64,000 bases of DNA from Candidatus Melainabacteria bacterium 17Bon1m (GTDB taxonomy: Bacteria > Cyanobacteriota > Vampirovibrionia > Obscuribacterales > Obscuribacteraceae), in the NCBI GenBank assembly GCA_032128875.1, contig JAVLKG010000002.1, positions 672,001-736,000 on the forward strand, given 5' to 3'. A program made the position numbers and the translations under genes. The notes beneath the pieces are model-generated. The model was not told the DNA's origin and searched no databases. It saw nothing but the letters and a program-made list of their open reading frames with translations. Positions 1 through 12,375 of the stretch are shown one piece after another. Positions within the stretch are counted from its first letter, which is position 1, and each line of letters begins with the position of its first letter.

Positions 1-1277
1 AGGCGCAGCTCGAAATCATCTGGGCTGAGTTTGATAGCTTCATCAAGACTCTTCAATGCAGCCTCATAGTCGTTGGAGGCAAGAAGTGCTCCAACTGCCG
101 CTTTCTGTGCCTTGATGTAGAGACCCTGGCTTAAACCTTTTACAGCTTGTGGATTATTTGGGCTCATCTGGAGAATGGTTCTAAAACCCTTGATTGCATC
201 ATCTGCCTTCTCGAGTTTCAAACAAATTTCTGCAATGCGTTGGCGCAAATCGATATCGTAGGGAATCTGCGACAAACCCGAACGCAGGTCGGCGAGCGCC
301 AATTCGAGATCGCTTCTGCTTTCGCGAATGTCTGCGATTTTGAGGTAAGGCTGTGCATTTTCCGGCTTGATCAAAATTGAGAGTTGATATTCCTTTATTG
401 CTGCAACCTGATTTCCTTGTTGTGCATAGGCATCACCAAGAGCCATGCGAACCGGCCAACTGTTGGGGAACTGGTAGAGAGAAGTATTCAGTTCTTTAAT
501 GGCATCGTCGACTTGCCCTTGTTTCAAATAAACAGAACCAAGACCGAAGTGGGCGGTTGAATTGCTTGAGCTAATATTGATAGCGCGTTTGAAGTTTTCT
601 GCAGCTTCCGCGAGGCTGCCTTGATCGAGTTTAATTGTTCCGAGCGTCGACAAAGCTTGCGAATGTTGTGGGTCAAGACTTACTGCCGTGCGCAATTCTT
701 GTGCGGCGTCTTCAATGCGCCCTTGTTCTTTATATACTTGCCCGAGCGTGAAGTGTGCTTCTCCGGATGCGGGTGCCAAAGCGGTTGCCCGTCTTGCGTA
801 GTCTTCAGCCTGACGCAAATAAGAATCGCGGTTGTCTCTGATAGTGCCCGATGAAGATTGCAGGCGGTTCAAAATGACGTTGGCTTTTCCCGCGAACGCC
901 AATGCATTATTAGGATCCGACTTCAAAACACGGTCGAGCATGTCGTCCGCGCCGTCCAATTTGAATTGTTTTGCAAGCGCTGTGCCCAAACCAACTGTTG
1001 CCGCAAGATCAGCAGGATTGTTGACGAGCAGTTCTCGGAACATTTCCTCCGCCTCTGCATAACGTCCTTGGGACATTAGTTGTTCGGCGGGAATGATGTC
1101 AGACTTGATCTTGCCGGTGAGGATTTGGTTTTGGTTGGGAGGTGGAGTGGTTGATGTGGCAGGCTGGGTTATCCCAGGCAATTGAGCGCCAGCGGTATGA
1201 GGGTAGAAAACGATCAGCCCGGATACTGCTAGAAGTCCGAAAAGGCTCAAACTTCCTGCTTTTCTGATGGCGGTCAT
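1..1277 (-). CDS. Secreted tetratricopeptide-repeat (TPR) protein, partial (3' end runs off the window)
   Basis: Not in the ORF track. Manual translation from ATG at 1277 (SD AAGGAGG just upstream) gives MTAIRKAGSLSLFGLLAVSGLIVFYPHTAGAQ (signal peptide), then TPR helices such as AHFTLGQVYKEQGRIEDAAQELRTAVSLDP and AHFGLGSVYLKQGQVDDAIKEL. Confidence 0.85.
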   Translation of the reverse strand, partial: MTAIRKAGSLSLFGLLAVSGLIVFYPHTAGAQLPGITQPATSTTPPPNQNQILTGKIKSDIIPAEQLMSQGRYAEAEEMFRELLVNNPADLAATVGLGTALAKQFKLDGADDMLDRVLKSDPNNALAFAGKANVILNRLQSSSGTIRDNRDSYLRQAEDYARRATALAPASGEAHFTLGQVYKEQGRIEDAAQELRTAVSLDPQHSQALSTLGTIKLDQGSLAEAAENFKRAINISSSNSTAHFGLGSVYLKQGQVDDAIKELNTSLYQFPNSWPVRMALGDAYAQQGNQVAAIKEYQLSILIKPENAQPYLKIADIRESRSDLELALADLRSGLSQIPYDIDLRQRIAEICLKLEKADDAIKGFRTILQMSPNNPQAVKGLSQGLYIKAQKAAVGALLASNDYEAALKSLDEAIKLSPDDFELR

Positions 1278-1467
1278 GCAATTCCTCCTTGCAAAGTCAC
1301 CAAATTCCTTATTTCAGAACGCTTCTTCAAGCGACAGGCTCGGCGTTTGCACGCAGAGCACAAGGCGAAGGTAACAGACCTTCGGTCCTGAAGTATTAGA
1401 AGGAGGGGTTTTACTTCGGATTTGAGGATAAGTCGATACAAGATTCTTAATGAAACCTTGCGACCTA

Positions 1468-1497
1468 TTGACAAATCCCGAAATCTTGCCGCACACT
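1468..1497 (+). promoter_or_regulatory. Putative sigma70 promoter for the argC leader
   Basis: TTGACA (1468-1473), 18-nt spacer, CACACT (1492-1497), about 35 nt upstream of the leader ATG. Confidence 0.5.
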
Positions 1498-1531
1498 ACA
1501 TAGGTTGATTCATCAGGTGCTCAAGAGACAG

Positions 1532-1588
1532 ATGCAGCTTATGCAAGCCCAACAAGTTATATCCCGACGCCGCCCAGGTCTCTTTTAA
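1532..1588 (+). CDS. Arg-codon leader peptide MQLMQAQQVISRRRPGLF (argC attenuator)
   Basis: 18-codon ORF (alternative ATG at 1541) with tandem CGA CGC CGC at 1565-1573, between the promoter and the terminator upstream of argC. Confidence 0.8.
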   Translation: MQLMQAQQVISRRRPGLF

Positions 1589-1636
1589 GGCCCGGCGCAG
1601 ATATGGCTTAGCTGATTTAGCACCATTTTCGAGTTT

Positions 1637-1671
1637 AGCCCCGGGTCCAAGGACCAGGGGTTTTTTGTTTT
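1637..1671 (+). terminator. Attenuator terminator upstream of argC
   Basis: AGCCCC-G-GGTC-caag-GACC-A-GGGGTT hairpin followed by a T-rich tract (TTTTTTGTTTT). Confidence 0.85.
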
Positions 1672-1697
1672 AGGGCTTGTTCAAGATGGATACACAG

Positions 1698-2753
1698 ATG
1701 AAGAAGATTGCGGTTGTCGGAGCTACAGGTTACACAGGTCAGGAGTTGATCAGAATTCTGGTTCAGCATCCCAATGTGAAAGTGCACACTGCAGTTTCTT
1801 CCACCAACAGCGGCAAGTCGTATGCGTCGGTTTATCCAGGGCTGTCAAAATTGGCCGATTTCACTTGCAGTGCTGATGACATTGATACGTTGTCTTCGCA
1901 AGTCGATCTGATTTTCCTTGCATTGCCTCATGGACTTGCGGCCAAAATGGTCAGCAAGGATGTGTTAGAGAAATGCGCGATTGTTGATCTCGGAGCTGAT
2001 TTCCGGTTGAAGAATGCCGGAGATTATGATGAATGGTACGAGTTCACTCACCCAAATCCTCAATTGCTCGATTGTTCTGCTTATGGACTGCCAGAGTTGA
2101 ACAGAGAAAAAATCAAATCTGCAAAGTTGATTGCTAATCCTGGTTGCTATGCAACCTGTTCAATTCTCTCATTGGCACCACTACTTAACGCTGGGCTGAT
2201 TGATGAGTCCACAGTCATAGTTGATGCAAAGTCTGGAGTCTCTGGTGCGGGAAGAAGTCTTTCGCTGGGAGTCCACTTCGACGAGTGTAATGAGTCCATC
2301 AAGGCTTACAAACTCGGTAGCCATCGGCACACTCCCGAGATCGAGCAAGCTCTGAATCCTTACGCGAAGAGTTCGCTGGCCATCTCGTTTACGCCACATT
2401 TGGTTCCTATGAACAGAGGAATTCTATGTACTACATATGGATCTTTAAAGAAAAAGATGTCAGATAAAGATCTCTTTGATCTCTATAGTGAATTCTATGA
2501 AGATGAGCAATTCATCAGGATCTTCGATCCGCAATCAGGCGAGTATAAATATCCAGAGACGCGTTGGGTTAAAGGATCTAACTATTGTGATATCGGACTC
2601 AGCGTCGATAAGAGAACCAGCAGAGCGATAGTCGTCGGGGCCCTAGATAATCTCGTGAAAGGCGCAGCAGGACAGGCAGTTCAAAACATGAACATCCACT
2701 TTGGCTGGCAAGAATCTACAGGTTTAACTCACGCTCCAATTTTTCCGGCGTAA
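1698..2753 (+). CDS. argC: N-acetyl-gamma-glutamyl-phosphate reductase
   Basis: IAVVGATGYTG Rossmann motif, IANPGCYAT catalytic Cys, DAKSGVSGAG, DNLVKGAAGQAVQNMN signature; start may be 1686 or 1698. Confidence 0.97.
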   Translation: MKKIAVVGATGYTGQELIRILVQHPNVKVHTAVSSTNSGKSYASVYPGLSKLADFTCSADDIDTLSSQVDLIFLALPHGLAAKMVSKDVLEKCAIVDLGADFRLKNAGDYDEWYEFTHPNPQLLDCSAYGLPELNREKIKSAKLIANPGCYATCSILSLAPLLNAGLIDESTVIVDAKSGVSGAGRSLSLGVHFDECNESIKAYKLGSHRHTPEIEQALNPYAKSSLAISFTPHLVPMNRGILCTTYGSLKKKMSDKDLFDLYSEFYEDEQFIRIFDPQSGEYKYPETRWVKGSNYCDIGLSVDKRTSRAIVVGALDNLVKGAAGQAVQNMNIHFGWQESTGLTHAPIFPA

Positions 2754-2779
2754 CAAATTTTGCAGATATCCCAGAATTA

Positions 2780-2809
2780 TTGACAGAAAAAATCCACAGC
2801 GTGTATATT
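2780..2809 (+). promoter_or_regulatory. Putative internal sigma70 promoter for the argJB leader
   Basis: TTGACA (2780-2785), 18-nt spacer, TATATT (2804-2809). Confidence 0.65.
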
Positions 2810-2832
2810 TGAATCTCAAGGAAATTTTTGAC

Positions 2833-2922
2833 ATGCAATTCAGCAAATCTCTCAGACACAACCGACGATTCCCCCGACGCCGCGCCAACGCGCTTGGGGA
2901 TTGCTCGCATACGTTGATTTAA
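2833..2922 (+). CDS. Arg-codon leader peptide MQFSKSLRHNRRFPRRRANALGDCSHTLI (argJB attenuator)
   Basis: 29-codon ORF with SD-like AAGGA upstream; 6 Arg among codons 8-17 (AGA CAC AAC CGA CGA TTC CCC CGA CGC CGC). Confidence 0.85.
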   Translation: MQFSKSLRHNRRFPRRRANALGDCSHTLI

Positions 2923-2946
2923 TACAACACTGCAAGAGATCTATAT

Positions 2947-2982
2947 TCCCCGAGTGCCCCCATCAAGGACTCGGGGATTTTT
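2947..2982 (+). terminator. Attenuator terminator upstream of argJ
   Basis: Perfect 9-bp stem TCCCCGAGT (2947-2955) / ACTCGGGGA (2969-2977) followed by TTTTT. Confidence 0.85.
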
Positions 2983-3016
2983 CTATGCATCTGTTTTTTG
3001 TTTGAGGAGATCCGAA

Positions 3017-4297
3017 ATGAATTCATTCACCACCATCATCGATGCGCATGCCTTGGCTGTTCAGGGCAAGGTGGTAGAAGCCCCTTTCAGCGGAAGCGTC
3101 ACCAGCGCAAAAGGCTTTAAGGCAGCCGGTGCTCACATCGGTGTAAAACGCAAAAGAAAAGATCTTGCTTTGATCTATAGCGAAGTTCCAGCAACTGTCG
3201 CCTGCATGTTCACTACCAACGTGATGAAAGCTGCGCCGATTCTGTGGAACCAGAGTGTTGTAGCTAAATCTCAAACAGTTCGTGGCATCGTCATCAACAG
3301 CGGCAACGCCAACTCTTGCACTGGCAAAGAAGGCCTGGAAAACGCAGAGATTATGGCTGCCACTTACGCTGATTGCATTGGTGTGAAGCCTGAGGAAATT
3401 CTTGTTTGCTCCACAGGTGTCATCGGCGTTCAACTTCCCATGGAAATCATCACGAAGGGCATCATCAACACGGCGACGTCCCTAGAGCACTCCAAGCTGG
3501 CTGGACAATTAGCAGCCGAAGCGATTATGACCACAGACACTTATACGAAACAGATCTCCGTAGAGTTCGAAGTCGGCGGGAAGAAGGTAGTACTTGGCGC
3601 GATGGCAAAAGGCAGCGGCATGATTCACCCGAACATGGCGACGATGCTTAGCTTTATCACGACCGACCTGGATATTGCCCCGCACATGCTGGAGAAAGCA
3701 CTGAAAGACAGTGGTGCCGATACCTATAACATGATTTCGGTTGACGGTGATACCAGCACGAATGACATGGTGGCAATCATGGCGAACGGACTGGCCGGCA
3801 ATGAAACTATCGTCAGCGAGGATGCCGGCTACTTCACCTTTTGCGAAGTGTTGAAGCAGGTAAACACACATCTGGCGAAAATCATTGTTCAAGACGGCGA
3901 GGGTGCAACCAAATTCTTGGAAGCCCAAGTGACATCTGTCGGATTGAAAGAAGATGCCAGACTGCTTGCACGTTCCATCGTTTCTTCCAGTCTGGTAAAA
4001 ACAGCGTTCTTCGGAGAGGACGCGAATTGGGGCAGAATCATCTGCGCAATGGGATACAGCGGCGCGAAATTTGATCCGGCTCACGTTTCAATTTCTCTGG
4101 AAAGCGCAGGCGGGATATTAGAACTCTTGAAACATGGCGAGCCGGTCTGCGTCAATGAAATTCTTGCGAAGCAAATTCTTGCCGAGAAGAACATCATCAT
4201 TCATGTGAACATGAATACCGGAATCGAGGAAGCTACCGCGTGGGGTTGCGATCTCAGTTATGACTACGTGCGGATTAATGGCTCTTACAGAACTTAG
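3017..4297 (+). CDS. argJ: Bifunctional ornithine acetyltransferase / N-acetylglutamate synthase
   Basis: NSGNAN, AIMTTDT, AKGSGMIHPNMATML (autoproteolytic Thr), DGDTSTND, DGEGATK, YVRINGSYRT; SD GAGGAG before ATG 3017. Confidence 0.97.
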   Translation: MNSFTTIIDAHALAVQGKVVEAPFSGSVTSAKGFKAAGAHIGVKRKRKDLALIYSEVPATVACMFTTNVMKAAPILWNQSVVAKSQTVRGIVINSGNANSCTGKEGLENAEIMAATYADCIGVKPEEILVCSTGVIGVQLPMEIITKGIINTATSLEHSKLAGQLAAEAIMTTDTYTKQISVEFEVGGKKVVLGAMAKGSGMIHPNMATMLSFITTDLDIAPHMLEKALKDSGADTYNMISVDGDTSTNDMVAIMANGLAGNETIVSEDAGYFTFCEVLKQVNTHLAKIIVQDGEGATKFLEAQVTSVGLKEDARLLARSIVSSSLVKTAFFGEDANWGRIICAMGYSGAKFDPAHVSISLESAGGILELLKHGEPVCVNEILAKQILAEKNIIIHVNMNTGIEEATAWGCDLSYDYVRINGSYRT

Positions 4298-5206
4298 GTG
4301 ACCGAAATGACACTGGCAACTTTTAAAGGCACGATATTACAGGAAAACTTTGATGCCCTCCCGAATTCTACTTTCGGGTTGAGTACAGATGGTGATCCGA
4401 TTGTTGTCGTAAAATTTGGCGGCAACGCCATTATGAATCCCAAAGTCCTCGATCAGCTGATTGAGGATACTTGCTCGCTCATCAGCAAAGGTGTACGTGT
4501 TGTTCTCGTACATGGTGGTGGCACCGCTGTCAATGATGCTCTTAAATCCGTTGGGAAGGAAACGCAGAAGATTGGCGGTTTGCGAGTCACAGACGATCAG
4601 ACATTGGAAATCGCTGTTGATGTTTTCACAGGCATCAATGAAAAGCTGACCGATAAGTTTTTGGCAAAAGGAGCGCAAGCACTCAGCTTTTGCTCCAAAA
4701 CTATCAATCCTTTTCTCAGCAAGAAAATGGAATTTCAAGATCCCCAAGGCAATGATGTCGACCTCGGCTGGGTCGGTGAAATTGTCGATGTCGATGCCAC
4801 CAAGCTTGATCGGTGGTTGTGGGCAGGCTGGATGCCTGTGATTTCGCCTTTCGGCAAAGATAAGAATGGGCAGCTCTACAACCTCAACGCAGATCACGCT
4901 GCGTTGGCTGTAGCGACATATCTGAATGCCGACGCCCTGATTTTCCTTACGGACGTTCCGGGAGTTTTGCGCGACGTGCAAGACCCTACTACCAGAATCA
5001 GCCACCTCACCCCAGCGCAGGCGCAAGTCTGTCTGGAAGAAGGGACGATTTCCGGAGGGATGCTTCCAAAAATCAAAAGCTGCTTGAAATGCCTAGACAA
5101 TGGCGTTGAGAAAATCGCCATTTTGAACAGCTTTGCGCCTCACGCATTGCTCAAAGGGTTTTCCGCACCTGAGAAATATGGAACAGTCCTGACACGAGCG
5201 AGTTAA
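4298..5206 (+). CDS. argB: Acetylglutamate kinase
   Basis: VVKFGGNA, VLVHGGG, GLRVTD, YNLNAD, LTDVPGV, ISGGMLPKI. Confidence 0.95.
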   Translation: MTEMTLATFKGTILQENFDALPNSTFGLSTDGDPIVVVKFGGNAIMNPKVLDQLIEDTCSLISKGVRVVLVHGGGTAVNDALKSVGKETQKIGGLRVTDDQTLEIAVDVFTGINEKLTDKFLAKGAQALSFCSKTINPFLSKKMEFQDPQGNDVDLGWVGEIVDVDATKLDRWLWAGWMPVISPFGKDKNGQLYNLNADHAALAVATYLNADALIFLTDVPGVLRDVQDPTTRISHLTPAQAQVCLEEGTISGGMLPKIKSCLKCLDNGVEKIAILNSFAPHALLKGFSAPEKYGTVLTRAS

Positions 5207-5306
5207 ACCTCGTAGCTTAAAATCGAGCAAATAGGGCAACACTGCACAATTCAACAGTGCTTTCAAACGCGCCTAGCCATACCATGACGGCATTGAAGCC
5301 GGGAGT

Positions 5307-7691
5307 ATGGCGATGCCACGATTTGAAAAATCTGAGAACAAAACTGATGGTGCCCTAGGAGCATTTGACAGAGCTTCGGATAAATCTTCAGGCGATGAGA
5401 ATTCGGGCGATAAAACAGCGCGCGGTTTTGATTGGTTCGGCGCGAATTTTGTTAACCCGCTGGTCAACACACTTTGTGTGGAACCTGCCAATGCGATCAC
5501 TCAGACGGTAGAGAGAGCGGCCGGACAGTCGCCTTTTCATCGTGTAGAGCCTCTGCCTGTCCCTGACACTTCTAAACGACCGATCTCAACCGAATTGGTT
5601 AGTCAGAGTGTAGCGTGTGCGATTGGATCTGTCGGACCTTATGCTCTAGCAGGAATGCTTGCCGGCAATGCCATGCGGTGTGCTGGTGCTGCTCTGAAAA
5701 CTGAAGGAGCGATTGCAACCTTTGCGCAAAATGACAAGGTTGCTCAGATCGTAGGAGCTGGCGTTTACGATGGAATGAAGGAAACTCGTCAGGGCGAGAC
5801 TCACTTGCGTAATGGAATAGCTGGCGCTGCCAGCTTTGCGGTATTGGAATACTCGCGTGTAGATCCTCGTGCTAGCTTGATTGGCCGCTCCCTTGATCGA
5901 TTCAGTTCGGGTTTTGTAGGCTCGCTTACTCATGTAGCTATTTCGCGCCCCGATGCTTTTTCCCTGAAGGCTCCTTCTGATATCAATATTTCGTCGAGCC
6001 TTTTGACGGGCGCTTTTATAAATGTTTTGCTCCCTGGCACTCAGCAGGGCTTACGGATGTTGCAAGAGAAAGCATCTTTGAGAATGGGTCGCGGCATTCC
6101 GATCGACAGATATCTGGTGTCGAACAGTTCTCATGTCAATGCAGAAACAATAAACGCTCGCGCCGAATTTACTTCTGCCACCACGAAAGAATTGTTTGAG
6201 CAAAACCGCTGGGCAAGAATTGAACCTGATTCAAAATTTGATTGTTACTTGCCAAAGCGAGATATGGTTTCACTAACGAGTGGTAGCTCTCGTGAAACGC
6301 TTTTGCATGAGCTTCACCACCGCAAAGAAGCTTTGGCTGGAATTGCAGAACCAGGATTTGTTCAAGCTGCCGCCTACTTAAATAAAGACGTGAATCGAGC
6401 CTGGCAAATCTTTGCTCGGGTACGTCGCGCTCAAGAAATTCGAGCTGAAATCGCAGGCCGCCAAGAAGTCAACGCTTCGGGGCTAACGAGTAAGGCAGAA
6501 TTCGTCAATGAACTTAAGAGAACGCTTCCTTCGGCCCGCTTTGCCGGCGGTGACTCATACATACAGCTTTGGCGTCGAGAGTTCCAGGCGTTTTTGCGCT
6601 CTGGCGGAAAGTTTCGACCTGAAGCCGATTACTCAAAGTGTCGTTTTAACAAGGAAATCAGAGATGAGGCCAACAGGCTTTATGTGCGTTTAGCGGGTCG
6701 AGAACCGAATGCCGGCAATGCCATCGATGGTGTGATTGAAAGGCATTCTCTAAATGACGAGCAAGTTCTAAGCGTTTTTAAACACGTAAATGAATTTCTC
6801 AAGCCTAAGTACAGCACTGCCGTTCAGCTTCCGTTGCCCTTTCTTGCGATGCAAACTTTGCGTTTGGTTGCCCGACCGGAAAAGGTCAAGCAGGGATTTC
6901 ATCCGACTTGCGGACCCGCAGCTCTTGAGTATGCAACTTATGTGAAACATCCTGAGAATGCTGCGAGTTTGATTTCGCAAGTAGCGCTAACCGGTAAATA
7001 CAAGTGTGCGGATGGTACTTCAATAACGCTTGACCTATTGAATGTAATACCTGAGAGGACAAAGACTAGAAGTTTTGCGAATCAATTGTTTCAGACTACC
7101 TCTGTGAACGTGCACTGGCAGAGAAAAACTAGTCTCGAACCATGGCTGTACTCAGGTGATGGAATTGACAATAGTATTACGGCTGGTGCCATTCGATATG
7201 AAAGGCAGCCGCACAACTCATCTAGTCCAGACTTGTATCGGCTCATGGACTATAGCAAAAAGCCGGTACGGCCACTTCAGGACAGATTGGCACCGGAGTT
7301 GCGCAATGATATGGCTGATCCTTTGATGGACTGCAACAGTCTGAATGATATCAATGGGCAGATAAATGGTGGCACGCATGGTGACATCGCCTTGCCTTGG
7401 GACCTGCACTCTCAGCAAGTTTTGGAAAGAACACTGAGAGAAAGACACCTGACAGGTCGGCTGCCTGTCTTGACCGTCATAGACTGCAGGCATCCACTTT
7501 TTCGTCATGGAATGGAGGATCCGCTTCCTGATGTTGGTTGGCACATTGTGGCGGTTCGAGGATATGACCCTGCCACAAAAACGGCGTCAATATTCAATCC
7601 GTGGGGGCACATTCTCAATGGTATAAGCACACGCGATTTGTACAAGGCAAACAAAGAATTTAAAATCTCAACTGAGAACAAGAGCCTGTAA
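5307..7691 (+). CDS. Large hypothetical protein with hydrophobic N-terminal region, HExxH motif and C-terminal papain-fold (C39/calpain-like) peptidase domain
   Basis: TLLHELHH motif; QGFHPTCGPAALE (Gln..Cys), WHIVAVRGYD (His), IFNPWG (Asn). Confidence 0.6.
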   Translation: MAMPRFEKSENKTDGALGAFDRASDKSSGDENSGDKTARGFDWFGANFVNPLVNTLCVEPANAITQTVERAAGQSPFHRVEPLPVPDTSKRPISTELVSQSVACAIGSVGPYALAGMLAGNAMRCAGAALKTEGAIATFAQNDKVAQIVGAGVYDGMKETRQGETHLRNGIAGAASFAVLEYSRVDPRASLIGRSLDRFSSGFVGSLTHVAISRPDAFSLKAPSDINISSSLLTGAFINVLLPGTQQGLRMLQEKASLRMGRGIPIDRYLVSNSSHVNAETINARAEFTSATTKELFEQNRWARIEPDSKFDCYLPKRDMVSLTSGSSRETLLHELHHRKEALAGIAEPGFVQAAAYLNKDVNRAWQIFARVRRAQEIRAEIAGRQEVNASGLTSKAEFVNELKRTLPSARFAGGDSYIQLWRREFQAFLRSGGKFRPEADYSKCRFNKEIRDEANRLYVRLAGREPNAGNAIDGVIERHSLNDEQVLSVFKHVNEFLKPKYSTAVQLPLPFLAMQTLRLVARPEKVKQGFHPTCGPAALEYATYVKHPENAASLISQVALTGKYKCADGTSITLDLLNVIPERTKTRSFANQLFQTTSVNVHWQRKTSLEPWLYSGDGIDNSITAGAIRYERQPHNSSSPDLYRLMDYSKKPVRPLQDRLAPELRNDMADPLMDCNSLNDINGQINGGTHGDIALPWDLHSQQVLERTLRERHLTGRLPVLTVIDCRHPLFRHGMEDPLPDVGWHIVAVRGYDPATKTASIFNPWGHILNGISTRDLYKANKEFKISTENKSL

Positions 7692-7759
7692 TATAAATGA
7701 ATCGAGAGAGTCGTCTGCACGTGATTTGACGAACCCACGGATTCTTCAGGAACTTCCCT

Positions 7760-8266
7760 TTGGCTGACATCGAAAATATTGGACGAATAAAGCGTATGAC
7801 GTTGCCCAACGGGTGGACTCCTACGCGGCAGGTGCTAGGACAGTTCGGCAATAGCTATCTGTATCATTATGGACGTTCTGACACGCCGGAGCTTCAACTT
7901 TCGATCTTTTACCGCGGGATGAATGTTTCGTCTCTCTCGGGAAAAACATTCGAGCGGATTTTGAAGAAGGAACCTCATGAACTGAGCTCAGAAGCTATAT
8001 TGAGCATTACTGAGGTTTTGGGAAGCTGCGCGCAGCCGGATCTCTATGATCTAGAACGCGCCAGCAGCAAATCACTTTCTGATTCAAATGTAATTGATGT
8101 AGAAGGACGCTTTCCCGAGGTCGGCCTTGAGAATCGCACCATTTTTATCAATGGTGGCAATGATGGTTGCGTGGTGCTGGAAATTATTTTCTCTGCGCCA
8201 AAGAAGGTTTTTCTCAAACACGCGCCTGAAATTGAGCGCTGCTTGCAGTCTATCGAATGGAAATAG
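7760..8266 (+). CDS. Hypothetical protein, possibly PsbP/DcrB-like fold
   Basis: N-terminal LPNGW and C-terminal ERCLQSIEW pattern typical of the fold; lies directly after the peptidase-domain gene. Confidence 0.5.
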   Translation: MADIENIGRIKRMTLPNGWTPTRQVLGQFGNSYLYHYGRSDTPELQLSIFYRGMNVSSLSGKTFERILKKEPHELSSEAILSITEVLGSCAQPDLYDLERASSKSLSDSNVIDVEGRFPEVGLENRTIFINGGNDGCVVLEIIFSAPKKVFLKHAPEIERCLQSIEWK

Positions 8267-8273
8267 CTACGTC

Positions 8274-8555
8274 CTAAAACTGTCTTGGATGACCGAAGCG
8301 GCTGGTGACGGATTCTGCGGTGCTGTACAAATAGCCGCTAGAATTGGTATCGCTGAGAATAGCAGGAGCCATGTGTGTCGGCTGGGCCGCCTGGTAATGC
8401 TGAACCATTTTCGGTGGCTGCGTATTTTGTTGCGCTTTCACTGCGGACATTGCATTGCCGACGTGTCCGAAGATAAACATAATAGTCATCAAGCCCAAGC
8501 CGCCAGCGGCGACTAGTCCTCCGCAGATGAGCTCTTCGTATTCTTCGAGATTCAC
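8274..8555 (-). CDS. Small membrane protein
   Basis: One hydrophobic helix (GGLVAAGGLGLMTIMFIFG). Confidence 0.5.
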   Translation of the reverse strand: MNLEEYEELICGGLVAAGGLGLMTIMFIFGHVGNAMSAVKAQQNTQPPKMVQHYQAAQPTHMAPAILSDTNSSGYLYSTAESVTSRFGHPRQF

Positions 8556-8833
8556 TTACGCTGTCCCTTCTGTTAGCGAAATAGTGATCGAGATTTCCGG
8601 GTTGCCGACGAGACTCTTGTCTCTGGGCAGGTTGCCTAAACTGCATTGCCTGCCGAATTCACCAATGCCCAACGCGAGCCAGTGACGAAGACCATGATAA
8701 AGCCGATGCCTGCTGGCGTATAGCCTTTGCAACGTTACCTAACTGAAAATTATCATAATGTTGAAGAATGGCTTGGGTTGCGGGAGAAAACCAGATTGAG
8801 CCAAGTGCGGTATGAGGAGCTAAAATAGACTCT

Positions 8834-9667
8834 ATGATTAAACTTCCTGCACGCATTTTAGTTGTTGTTGCCCTTGCTGGGCTGGTCTACGGCGTTTTTA
8901 GTGTGTCTAGAATGAACTCTTCGCCTGCTCAAGATGTGGCTCCGCCGGGATGCAGCGAGGGGGGCGAACCTGGGTCGTCAGAACCAGGAGCGGCCGGTGG
9001 AAGTCCAGGATCGGTGGGCGGCAACCCCGGATCGTCGGGCGGAAGTACTGGTGCGGGCGCAAACTCCGGAGCGATGCCCGGAAACTCTGGCTCGGCGGGT
9101 GCCGGTTCTTCAGACTCAGGTGGTTCGGGAGATCCGGATGGAACTGTTAGCAGTGTGGTAAACCCCAATGAGGGCGCCTTCGAATGGACGCTCGAGCGCA
9201 TGCTTTTAGCGACGCCGATGCCCATGACTGGCGAAGAACGCTCGTTTCTTTTCAAACATCCGCCACTCGAGCAGCTCCTAAGCTGGAAGCAAGCGGATTT
9301 TGACCAATATATTGCTGATCCTCTAGGGCTCAAACACGCAGCCGAAGAGGGGGTGCGCTGGCGCGGACTATCCGCAATGCTGAAGAGACAAGCCACTGCC
9401 GGTGCCAGGTTTTTCGGTGACAAAGACGAAGCACCAATTTTTCATAGCTCGTCAGATTTTCGCGGTGCAGAATTCGAGAATTTCGATTTTGACCAATTTT
9501 CTCTTGGTTTGAAGAAAGACCCGATTGGCGCATTTATCAAAATGCGACAATGGCGTCAGGAAATAAAGATCCGTGCCGCTCTTGTCGAATCCATGCGCAA
9601 GAAAGCCGCCCAACAAGGGAAGACAGAAGAGTTCGAAAAGGCGATCGATGATAGTGGTTCGAACTAG
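8834..9667 (+). CDS. Exported hypothetical protein with Gly/Ser-rich linker
   Basis: N-terminal TM/signal segment, long GS-rich low-complexity tract, helical C-terminal domain. Confidence 0.65.
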   Translation: MIKLPARILVVVALAGLVYGVFSVSRMNSSPAQDVAPPGCSEGGEPGSSEPGAAGGSPGSVGGNPGSSGGSTGAGANSGAMPGNSGSAGAGSSDSGGSGDPDGTVSSVVNPNEGAFEWTLERMLLATPMPMTGEERSFLFKHPPLEQLLSWKQADFDQYIADPLGLKHAAEEGVRWRGLSAMLKRQATAGARFFGDKDEAPIFHSSSDFRGAEFENFDFDQFSLGLKKDPIGAFIKMRQWRQEIKIRAALVESMRKKAAQQGKTEEFEKAIDDSGSN

Positions 9668-10077
9668 CTAACCAGCATGGTCCATTCCATGATGACGATA
9701 ATGGTTACTGCAATTGCGGTAAAAGCAATCCAGCCTGCCATGCGCCCCGGTGATGTTCTCAAAGCGAGGAAAGCCAGACCGGCAATTGCCATGTTGGCGA
9801 GCGCGATTAGTTTGCTCTCTGTTGGATAAAGCGTCATAGCCTGGAACACTTTGTGCATCACATCTGGTGCCAGCTCATATATAGCTGCGACACCAAGCAT
9901 CATGCCTCCGACGATAGTGGCTGGGTTTTGAAAAACGCGACCAAGTTCTTGCATCTCTTCTTCTACAGACATCGCCTGCAGAACTACTTTGTCTTCCTGC
10001 GCCGAAGCAACCGCACTGGTATCACCTTCGAGGTTCCAGTTGATTGTTTGTATATCGCGTTCTTTGATTGCCACCAT
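9664..10077 (-). CDS. Hypothetical membrane protein (about 3 TM)
   Basis: Three hydrophobic segments in the C-terminal two-thirds. Confidence 0.6.
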   Translation of the reverse strand: MVAIKERDIQTINWNLEGDTSAVASAQEDKVVLQAMSVEEEMQELGRVFQNPATIVGGMMLGVAAIYELAPDVMHKVFQAMTLYPTESKLIALANMAIAGLAFLALRTSPGRMAGWIAFTAIAVTIIVIMEWTMLVS

Positions 10078-10477
10078 TTGCCATGCCCTTCAAGAGAAAG
10101 CTGCCAAACAAATTCACATGCTAAGTGCGAACTCTGTCTGGTTTATAGCTAACTATCGCCGCCAAATCTATGCCTGGCAACACCATACTATGAAGTCAAG
10201 AGGAAGCAAAGGGGTTGAGAGCCTATCTGAAAGGAGATTAATCGCTGAGACCCGGATATACAGCTGTTTTTGATTAGAGAAGTGTCATGTTCGCCGAAGC
10301 CTACCCCTGTCTGTACACGCGTTGTTCACTCGCCGCGAGCAAAATACCATTGGCAGAATCTGCGAGGGTAGCGTGAGCCCAATTGCTAAACCCTCGCAGT
10401 GATGCCACTTATCCCTGTATCATGATTGCCTGAAAGCGAGCAGTCCCGCACGCATTGGGACACAGGAGTCAGTCGAA

Positions 10478-11434
10478 GTGGCTTACTATTTGGCACCGAT
10501 ATCTTTGGGTTTGGGCGACCTGATGGTCTCGCTTCCGGCTCTCCAGGCGTTGATCGCCACTGGTGAACCTACTTACCTGGTCAGTCGCTCACCTATGCAA
10601 GAAGGTCTGGAAGGGCGCATCTGCGGTTTGGCCGGCATGATACGCGAGATCGAATTTGATCCATCGGCGCTCTCGCCAGAAGACATTTTCTACAACCTGC
10701 GCGATCATCCACTCCAAACTGACTATATCTGGGGTGCAGGCGAGTTTGAACTGCGTTATCCGGGCTATAAAATCACCGAAGTTTTGAAAGGCATCTGCGC
10801 CGACTTCGGTATTGAGGCAGACTACTCAAAGCTCTTGCAATTACCTTTCAAAAAGCGTGAGGAGGTCGATAACGCCGTTGTTTTCGTGCCTGGTTCTGCA
10901 GGCATCGTGAAGTGCTGGCCTGCTTTTCATTGGTTGGAGTTAGCTGATCGGCTGAAGAAGCGTGGTATCAAATGTGCAGTTGTCGGCGAGCCTGAGCATT
11001 CTCCTGTCGTGCATGAATGTGTGGAGGGTGGACTAGCTCATATTCCAACACCGACTCTTGCCGAGGCTCTCGATGTTCTAAGCTCTGCTCGTTGTGTTGT
11101 TGCCGTTGATACTGGTTTGATGCACTTGGCGTTGCAACAAGGAGTGCCGACAGTTTCTCTCTTCAGATACAACGTTATGTTCCAGCGCGACTACCCTCAT
11201 GTTCGCAGTTTGAGCGCACCTCGCTGTCCGCAAGAATGCACAGATGTTGAGTACAGCGGAACACCGCATAAAATCGTCAGTTACGAGTCATTTGAGCCAG
11301 ACGAAAAGCGCCTTTACTGGGAAACTTGGCAATGTTCAAAGCAAAATTGGAAGGAGAGATGCATGGCATCGATTTTGCCAGAACACGTCCAAGCGGCAAT
11401 TGAGGATGTCGCTTCGCTGGTTCAAGTTAGTTAG
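10478..11434 (+). CDS. Glycosyltransferase family 9 (heptosyltransferase-like)
   Basis: GLGDL, KCWP, VVAVDTGLMHLA motifs. Confidence 0.85.
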   Translation: MAYYLAPISLGLGDLMVSLPALQALIATGEPTYLVSRSPMQEGLEGRICGLAGMIREIEFDPSALSPEDIFYNLRDHPLQTDYIWGAGEFELRYPGYKITEVLKGICADFGIEADYSKLLQLPFKKREEVDNAVVFVPGSAGIVKCWPAFHWLELADRLKKRGIKCAVVGEPEHSPVVHECVEGGLAHIPTPTLAEALDVLSSARCVVAVDTGLMHLALQQGVPTVSLFRYNVMFQRDYPHVRSLSAPRCPQECTDVEYSGTPHKIVSYESFEPDEKRLYWETWQCSKQNWKERCMASILPEHVQAAIEDVASLVQVS

Positions 11435-11451
11435 AGGACAGGGGGAGTACT

Positions 11452-12375
11452 TTGTCTGACAGCAGTTCTATTCATGACTTAGTAGTTGTTGGAGGCGGGC
11501 CCGCCGGTATCAGTTGTGCGCTGGAGTGTCACGAAAATGCACTTGATGTTGTTGTGCTGGAACGTGAAAAACGTGTCGGCGGGCAGCTTCCTCAAATACC
11601 TAGTCCTGTTTATAACTATGCTGCCGGTTTTTTTGAAAACGGCGAACAAATGCGCGACCAGATGGAAAAGGTTGCACAAATGTTTCTCACTGACCGCGTG
11701 AAGACTGGATGCGATGTCTTGAGTGTAAATCTGGCCAAAAAGGAAGTTACAACCAGCCAAGGAACTTACAAGGGAAAGACTATCCTTCTTTCCACCGGAT
11801 ATCGTGTAAGACGCCTTGAGATGCCTATTTCCGATGAGTATGCAGGTGATGTTCTCTACCGAAGTGGTATTCATCGCGAAGAGCTAAAAGGCAAAGAGGT
11901 CGTGATAATTGGCAGTGGAGATAGCGCCGTCTTCACCGCTCTAGATTTGACTGAATACTGCTCTCACATCACAGTGTTGGCTCGCAGCAACATGTTTAAG
12001 GCGCGACCGGATATAGTGGCACGAATGCGCGACAGCAAAATAATTGAAGTGCATACTAATTCGGTTGTTACTTCACTGCGTGGTAATGGAAAACTTGAAT
12101 CGATTATTGTGTCGAGTAAATCGGCTGAAATTGAGGTCAAATGCTCTAAGCTCATTGCGAAACTAGGTTACTTGCCTAATACCGAGCTGTTCAGCGATCA
12201 ATTAGAAAGTTCTCGTGGACACATAATTGTTAACTCGCAATTTGCCACTTCAATTGATGGCGTTTTTGCCGCAGGTGATATTGCCCAGCCCGGCTATGAT
12301 CGTGTTGCTTTTGCCGTAGGAAGCGGTGTTATGGCAGCCCGTTCAATCAGAGCCTTTCTTGGACAGACACCATAG
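11452..12375 (+). CDS. Thioredoxin-reductase-like FAD/NAD(P) oxidoreductase without CxxC
   Basis: VVVGGGPAG, IIGSGDSA, TSIDGVFAAGD motifs. Confidence 0.85.
   Translation: MSDSSSIHDLVVVGGGPAGISCALECHENALDVVVLEREKRVGGQLPQIPSPVYNYAAGFFENGEQMRDQMEKVAQMFLTDRVKTGCDVLSVNLAKKEVTTSQGTYKGKTILLSTGYRVRRLEMPISDEYAGDVLYRSGIHREELKGKEVVIIGSGDSAVFTALDLTEYCSHITVLARSNMFKARPDIVARMRDSKIIEVHTNSVVTSLRGNGKLESIIVSSKSAEIEVKCSKLIAKLGYLPNTELFSDQLESSRGHIIVNSQFATSIDGVFAAGDIAQPGYDRVAFAVGSGVMAARSIRAFLGQTP

Follow-up and report, generated by a model that had tools for sequence, protein, structure and literature searches.

A candidate arginine-codon attenuator upstream of argC in uncultured Melainabacteria

Introduction

Attenuation of the classical kind is exemplified by the leader peptides of enterobacterial amino-acid operons (trpL, hisL, leuL, thrL, pheL, and ilvL), and Trp, His, Leu, Thr, Phe, and Ile/Val are the amino acids for which it is taught. 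The arg genes have a textbook regulator of another sort: ArgR/AhrC, a DNA-binding protein that senses free arginine and acts with ARG boxes. Control at the RNA level has also been described where arginine is concerned. According to the sections available of the respective papers, consecutive Arg codons in ORF34 of the Salmonella speF leader slow the ribosome at low arginine and thereby alter mRNA folding (PMC6386406); T-boxes are named as the RNA-level control known for arginine, with Arg-specific leaders mentioned (PMC1262725); and a carA leader peptide is mentioned in P. aeruginosa (PMC4997734). The sections available of PMC2965389 and PMC8632094 make no mention of an Arg leader, and the main texts of the open literature that were searched yielded no leader-peptide attenuator for arginine biosynthesis; an older description is possible in subscription journals or supplements. 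The mechanism of attenuation is classical, and its arginine specificity appears to be undescribed.

The subject here is a leader upstream of argC in a 64,000-nt stretch of a Melainabacteria genome (the window; coordinates given without a contig are positions in it). Very probably, it is a ribosome-mediated attenuator that couples transcription of argC to the level of charged arginine tRNA, a reading that draws on the anatomy of the leader, its conservation and covariation, its gene context, and its fold preferences.

Anatomy of the argC leader

The leader and the gene behind it comprise the following elements.

1468 to 1473, plus strand: -35-like hexamer TTGACA of the leader promoter, in the same place in 11 of 11 loci of the genus
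1492 to 1497, plus strand: possible weak -10 element CACACT, 18 nt past the -35; uncertain, read from the sequence only
1532 to 1588, plus strand: leader ORF MQLMQAQQVISRRRPGLF, with frame and RRR run kept in 11 of 11 loci of the genus
1554 to 1572, plus strand: segment 1, forming the 5' strand of predicted helix 1:2 and overlapping the Arg codons (lowest-energy folds)
1565 to 1573, plus strand: putative regulatory Arg codons CGA CGC CGC, leader codons 12 to 14
1586 to 1588, plus strand: TAA stop of the leader ORF (sequence)
1589 to 1609, plus strand: segment 2, partner of segment 1 or segment 3 (folds; 2:3 covariation)
1611 to 1621, plus strand: small hairpin GCUG-AUU-UAGC, within the conserved box, rich in stop codons, that separates segments 2 and 3 (lowest-energy fold)
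1637 to 1647, plus strand: segment 3, both the 5' arm of the terminator and the 3' strand of the antiterminator (folds; covariation)
1652 to 1662, plus strand: segment 4, the 3' arm of the terminator (folds; covariation)
1661 to 1671, plus strand: U tract, T6 G T4 (sequence)
1686 to 2753, plus strand: argC, N-acetyl-gamma-glutamyl-phosphate reductase (TIGR01850, 455.5 bits against a cut-off of 233.6)

The true start of argC may be the ATG at 1698, since its relatives begin at MKK. On the other side of the leader, the gene encoding a TPR protein lies on the opposite strand; the hairpin at 1637-1662 is thus not the terminator of a preceding gene. A simple consensus scan scored no full promoter at the argC leader; at the spacing of the possible -10 element, leaders of other genera have TAACNT. 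The terminator hairpin was likewise not flagged by a simple terminator scan, probably because its stem contains one G.A mismatch (1643 x 1656). As consensus scanning missed this promoter and the terminators of both leaders in the window, folding was used instead. Four RNA-labelled runs of one sample contain the stretch only as contigs of 20-48 kb, which reveal no transcript starts, ends, or levels; the runs may be DNA or may be what this assembly was made from.

The sequence-only reading of this locus had proposed a leader ORF with three alternative helices, and every helix it named was recovered at the coordinates given. The ORF at 1532-1588 was re-extracted with its Arg codons at 1565-1573 and its stop at 1586-1588. 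The outer part of helix 1:2 pairs AAGUUAUAUC (1554-1563) with GAUAUGGCUU (1600-1609) through 10 pairs, two of them G-U. In helix 2:3, GGCCCGG (1589-1595) pairs with CCGGGUC (1641-1647) through seven pairs, one of them G-U, and the inner part, GGCU (1605-1608) with AGCC (1637-1640), is present as well, at the cost of a 9-nt bulge on the 5' side. Terminator 3:4 spans 1637-1662 and runs into the U tract. The same reading held that a ribosome at the Arg codons would leave segment 2 free and that one at the stop would cover it. Segment 2 begins 16 nt past the last Arg codon and 1 nt past the stop, so that, for a ribosome footprint of textbook size, the spacing fits, and the predicted fold agrees.

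Alternative folds

The energies of the three helices as claimed are -15.0 (1:2), -14.6 (2:3), and -17.1 kcal/mol (3:4). The unconstrained lowest-energy fold of 1532-1675, at -48.1 kcal/mol, holds 1:2 together with 3:4. Does 2:3 form when segment 1 is blocked, as the sequence-only reading demanded? When the 5' part is blocked and the transcript ends at 1648-1658, the lowest-energy fold (-19.9 kcal/mol) consists of the claimed 2:3 helix and a few extra pairs; the antiterminator is thus preferred, to the exclusion of the terminator, as long as segment 1 is covered and segment 4 has yet to be made, and the sequence-only reading withstands the refuting condition it had set. Once the full terminator is present, the equilibrium fold reverts to 3:4 even with segment 1 blocked. 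Read-through must therefore be kinetic, as it is in classical attenuators, and the predicted kinetic competition in the argC leader is the weakest computed link.

How unusual is such a leader? Taken as a whole, the fold has z = -2.0, and 4 of 200 shuffles were as stable. The 2:3 duplex, at -16.8 kcal/mol against a shuffle mean of -11.2, was reached by 5 of 300 shuffles. Two contigs of the same genome provided 164 stringent terminator-like sites as controls, of which 3.0% have an upstream complement as strong as that of the argC leader; the median complement at these control sites is -8.9 kcal/mol, and 7.3% lie at -15 or lower. In 36 distinct leaders, by comparison, the median is -16.7 kcal/mol and 89% lie at -15 or lower. 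The argC leader alone is a modest outlier, and it is the comparative data that make the case strong.

These numbers bear on the plainest alternative, that the hairpin is an ordinary terminator or insulator next to a small ORF that arose by chance, with no regulatory role. Scans of the genome for an RRR-containing ORF followed by a terminator were noisy, with 93 ORF entries under loose settings (many of them nested starts) and 47 candidates under stricter ones, from which only the three arg sites were taken further; small ORFs of this kind are thus common before terminator-like hairpins by chance, and the modest z of the argC leader fits that picture. An ordinary terminator would, however, have nothing to terminate here, where the upstream gene lies on the other strand. 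Chance also fares badly with the recurrence of the same design at three arg operons, its retention in 19 genera, and the covariation of two helices that exclude each other (see below); this alternative is extremely unlikely.

Conservation and covariation

In all 11 loci of the genus with sequence upstream of argC, a leader of the form QAQQVISRRRPGL with RRR is present. In 9 of these 11, the leader peptide ends in RPGADMA, or a variant of it, and the stop is at the equivalent of 1609-1611. Compared with these nine, the genome studied here and its nearest relative lack one base at about position 1584, so that the TAA at 1586 falls in frame and the leader has 18 codons instead of about 26. The stop at 1586-1588, on which the sequence-only reading relied, is accordingly real in this genome and peculiar, among the 11 loci, to these two. 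With either stop, the one at 1586 or the equivalent of 1609-1611, a terminating ribosome is over segment 2.

Covariation was assessed in an alignment of 66 rows, 54 of them distinct (A2), which was fitted to the terminator only. Support is quoted below as counts of shuffles, which overstate it among related sequences, and against slid controls, which are free of this flaw. Over the nine pairs of 2:3, 92.6% of cells are paired and 42 have changed on both sides (0 of 500 shuffles; best slid control, 62.9%); over the seven pairs of 3:4, 97.9% are paired and 40 have changed on both sides (0 of 500 shuffles; best slid control, 61.4%). The two helices share segment 3, and column 126 of that segment covaries with its partner in segment 2 (UA 24, CG 16, UG 13) as well as with its partner in segment 4 (GC 28, AU 24), the pattern expected of two mutually exclusive helices. 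Structural support for the small hairpin at 1611-1621 is weak: 83.1% paired, nine changes on both sides, 2 of 500 shuffles, and a slid control of 65.3%. The second pairing claimed for 1:2, CGCCG (1568-1572) with CGGCG (1593-1597), is present in the sequence; its exact register, however, shows no covariation in the family (65.8% paired, two double changes, 60 of 500 shuffles, slid control 52.6% in A2).

When the 54 distinct sequences are folded one at a time, 47 pair segment 2 with the Arg-codon region and 50 form the terminator; once a stalled ribosome is imposed, all 54 form 2:3.

Signs of translation and the conserved box

Is the leader ORF read by ribosomes? In an alignment of the leaders (A1), the first two Arg codons always begin with CG, and for the third the conservation of CG is at least 90%; the third codon positions in between are not invariant. 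CGU, CGC, or CGA account for 303 of the 339 Arg codons in the leaders, as against about 65% in long ORFs; in bacteria, these three codons are read by one tRNA-Arg, with anticodon ICG. Words resembling a Shine-Dalgarno sequence precede 20 of the 45 distinct leader AUGs, compared with 10% of random positions; the one before the AUG at 1532 is weak. The argC leader itself holds only three Arg codons, and CGC is the most frequent Arg codon genome-wide.

Downstream of the Arg codons, the box UAGCUGAUUUAGCACCA (1609-1625) is conserved across genera, more than a ribosome-based model needs. This surplus would suit a TRAP- or PyrR-like RNA-binding protein that responds to arginine, sits on the box, and chooses between 2:3 and 3:4, the ORF being incidental. 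Such a protein is quite unlikely to be the answer: the box varies by leader type, reading GUUGAUUUAAUACAAC in argJ leaders of the genus and UAGCUAAAAAGCAAAAC in another genus; an incidental ORF sits poorly with first and second Arg codons whose CG is invariant while the third positions between them are not (A1); and no candidate protein was identified. The box also contains stop codons in two of the frames, and most leader ORFs end there. Together with the small hairpin, it may be an added module for ribosome release or pausing.

A different alternative keeps the ribosome and changes what it senses. In TnaC and the fungal arginine attenuator peptide, the nascent peptide is the sensor; a leader peptide responding to free arginine could hold the ribosome on segment 2, at the stop or close to it, whenever arginine is high, and thereby favour termination. 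A ribosome held at either of the two stops does cover segment 2, and the motifs RPG and NSG/NPG recur in the leader peptides. The recurrence of NSG/NPG is nevertheless accounted for by the RNA of segment 2, AACUCGGGG or AACCCGGGG; peptide residues outside the Arg run vary freely, and the position of the stop differs within the genus. A nascent-peptide sensor is therefore very unlikely, and sensing of Arg-tRNA through stalling at the Arg codons is the preferred reading.

Further leaders in the same genome

A second leader stands downstream of argC within the window, in front of argJ-argB.

2780 to 2809, plus strand: promoter-like TTGACA-18-TATATT of the second leader, 11 of 12 matches to consensus
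2833 to 2922, plus strand: second Arg leader ORF, MQFSKSLRHNRRFPRRRANALGDCSHTLI, before argJ-argB (match to covariance model R1, 26.8 bits, E 1e-4)
2889 to 2901, plus strand: segment 2 of the second leader (CGCGCUUGGGGAU), forming a duplex of -20.9 kcal/mol with the 5' arm of the terminator
2946 to 2982, plus strand: terminator of the second leader, with arms 2947-2957 and 2967-2977 followed by T5 (folding, sequence)
3017 to 4297, plus strand: argJ (TIGR00120, 490.6 bits against a cut-off of 298), with an ATG start after GAGGAG
4298 to 5206, plus strand: argB (TIGR00761, 200.9 bits against a cut-off of 151.3)

None of 300 shuffles reached the duplex energy of segment 2 in this leader. Because the argJ-argB leader has its own promoter-like site and its own terminator, argC and argJB would form separately attenuated units. 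Past argB, the ORFs at 5307-7691 (794 aa) and 7760-8266 (168 aa) have no NCBIfam match at E <= 0.001.

A third Arg leader, MTFANYTSNNRRTRRVLLNSGPAGLR, with a terminator lies before argF-argG-argH (contig C1, 491751-491886). The covariance model R1 was built from 16 leaders of the argC and argF types, with the argJ leader outside the training set. Searched against the 7.55 Mb genome at E <= 1e-4, it finds only the three arg leaders (108.1, 69.2, and 26.8 bits), and the 26.8-bit match is the argJ leader that it had never been given. Two further matches, at E 0.6-0.9, cover the terminator only. No Arg leader was seen in this genome before carA (present once), either of the two copies of carB, or three argD-like genes.

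A search of this genome, which is 93.2% complete, for ArgR (TIGR01529) gave no match at E <= 0.01. The three paralogous Arg leaders, before argC, argJ-argB, and argF-argG-argH, look like an arginine regulon run by attenuation.

Are other amino acids treated in the same way? A strict scan of the genome that used ATG starts only, and whose silence is not evidence of absence, returned no leaders of the His, Trp, Thr, Phe, or branched-chain style. Its single match was an Asn/Asp leader, MVGAASPAFVDNNNNNDNDNNRFLRLVRRHT, on the minus strand of contig C3 (about 619847-619990), in which eight Asn and three Asp codons fill an 11-codon stretch followed by a terminator. It lies directly before a gene for a non-discriminating aspartate--tRNA(Asn) ligase (NF003483, 552.8 bits) and has the appearance of a tRNA-synthetase attenuator working through Asn/Asp codons. 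An Asn/Asp-codon leader before an aspartyl-tRNA synthetase suggests a broader use of the attenuator design in this lineage.

Distribution in the family and beyond

Within the family, 38 of 61 regions upstream of argC, argJ, or argF hold an ORF with an Arg run and a terminator. R1 has matches in 55 of 101 genomes, representing 19 of the 37 genera, usually at one to three sites per genome. Of 66 R1 matches in 46 loci, 55 lie directly before arg genes (argC 21, argF 18, argJ 14, argG 2); nine of the others have too little downstream sequence and two gave no match, so that the proportion among assessable matches is 55 of 57. All 66 of the R1 matches listed contain an ORF in which two to five consecutive Arg codons stand in frame.

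The geometry is kept as well. From the first Arg codon to the terminator, the distance is about 74-85 nt in leaders of the argC type, 80-101 nt in those of the argJ type, and 61-80 nt in 11 of 12 leaders of the argF type, the remaining one having 125 nt. Counted from the first Arg codon, the start of segment 2 lies 17-28 nt downstream in leaders of the argC and argF types.

Outside the family, R1 gives weak matches, most of them to the terminator only, in 5 of 120 genomes of the class, and weak matches in 6 of 150 genomes of a phylum sample. No Arg leader was found upstream of argF in 12 loci from other families of the class. As R1 is sequence-specific, these weak outside matches remain compatible with non-homologous Arg leaders elsewhere. 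Two full-length matches in the phylum sample were rejected as leaders, both being the ends of coding genes.

One match in the class is full-length (31 bits; G156:C2:411760-411885, minus strand) and belongs to another family. Its leader, MLSRSIIILTVVVLVLIGSTG, is rich in Ile, Val, and Leu codons, has an antiterminator and a terminator of like build, and precedes an uncharacterised ORF of 466 aa. As an Arg leader it was rejected, its codons being of the branched-chain amino-acid type.

A model for attenuation at argC

How might the leader work? Its translation, stalling of the ribosome, kinetic competition between the helices, and the response to arginine are what we infer from the features described above. 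Transcription would start about 27 nt 5' of the leader AUG. When Arg-tRNA is scarce, the ribosome would stall at CGA CGC CGC (1565-1573) and cover segment 1 up to about 1585, leaving segment 2 (1589-1609) free to pair with segment 3 (1637-1647) as the latter emerges; with 2:3 formed, no terminator would arise and RNA polymerase would continue into argC. When Arg-tRNA is plentiful, two routes would lead to the same end: (i) a ribosome that reaches the stop codon would cover segment 2, allowing 3:4 to form; and (ii) if the ribosome has already left, 1:2 would re-form, and 3:4 with it. In both cases, transcription would end at the U tract.

Extended to the whole family, the model states that arginine biosynthesis is under paralogous attenuators descended from one ancestor, which are read almost wholly through CGU, CGC, and CGA codons, and not under ArgR. 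This broader proposal, which counts the argC, argJ-argB, and argF-argG-argH leaders and, in some genera, one before argG, is probable, though held with less assurance than the assignment of the argC leader itself. If it is true, charging of one tRNA-Arg species would set the expression of much of the pathway, and the leaders would constitute an Arg-specific class of the classical attenuator, a class not found in Rfam or in the literature searched. Arginine synthesis, the textbook case of the ArgR repressor, would here be handled by translation-coupled RNA switching, in an uncultured and little-studied lineage, a family of non-photosynthetic relatives of cyanobacteria. For annotation of these MAGs, R1 is a ready covariance model that covers three operons per genome and two covarying alternative helices.

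Comparison with known systems

Does the leader belong to a family that is already described? A search with cmscan against Rfam found no T-box at E <= 10 in positions 1-12000; no family, any speF leader family included, gave a meaningful match there, only three chance-level hits at E <= 10. The best match at the argC leader, rdlD, falls on the terminator hairpin with 18.8 bits, as against a gathering score of 50.

Among systems that respond to arginine, ArgR shares with the Arg leaders both its target, the arginine biosynthetic operons, and the logic of repression by the end product. The difference lies in the signal: ArgR senses free arginine, whereas an Arg leader would sense tRNA charging through translation. 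Arg-specific T-boxes (mentioned in PMC1262725) resemble the proposed Arg attenuators in being RNA-level antitermination systems before arginine-related genes that depend on tRNA charging. A T-box binds uncharged tRNA directly and has no leader ORF, whereas the argC leader has one. In the speF leader, Arg codons of an upstream ORF change the folding of the mRNA, as they would in the argC leader; unlike the argC leader, ORF34 controls an ornithine decarboxylase and not arginine synthesis, and, as far as the sections available describe it, it acts through mRNA stability, access to the ribosome-binding site, and possibly Rho, with no intrinsic 3:4 terminator (PMC6386406).

In its design, the argC leader has most in common with the classical attenuators. 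Both combine a short ORF with tandem codons for the end product, cognate biosynthetic genes downstream, the alternative hairpins 2:3 and 3:4 (with a candidate 1:2 in the argC leader), and an intrinsic terminator. The argC leader differs in that it would sense arginine, bears no sequence or Rfam relationship to its classical counterparts, and is one of three paralogous copies that would control separate arg operons; its hosts are uncultured MAGs of Melainabacteria/Obscuribacterales, in place of enterobacteria.
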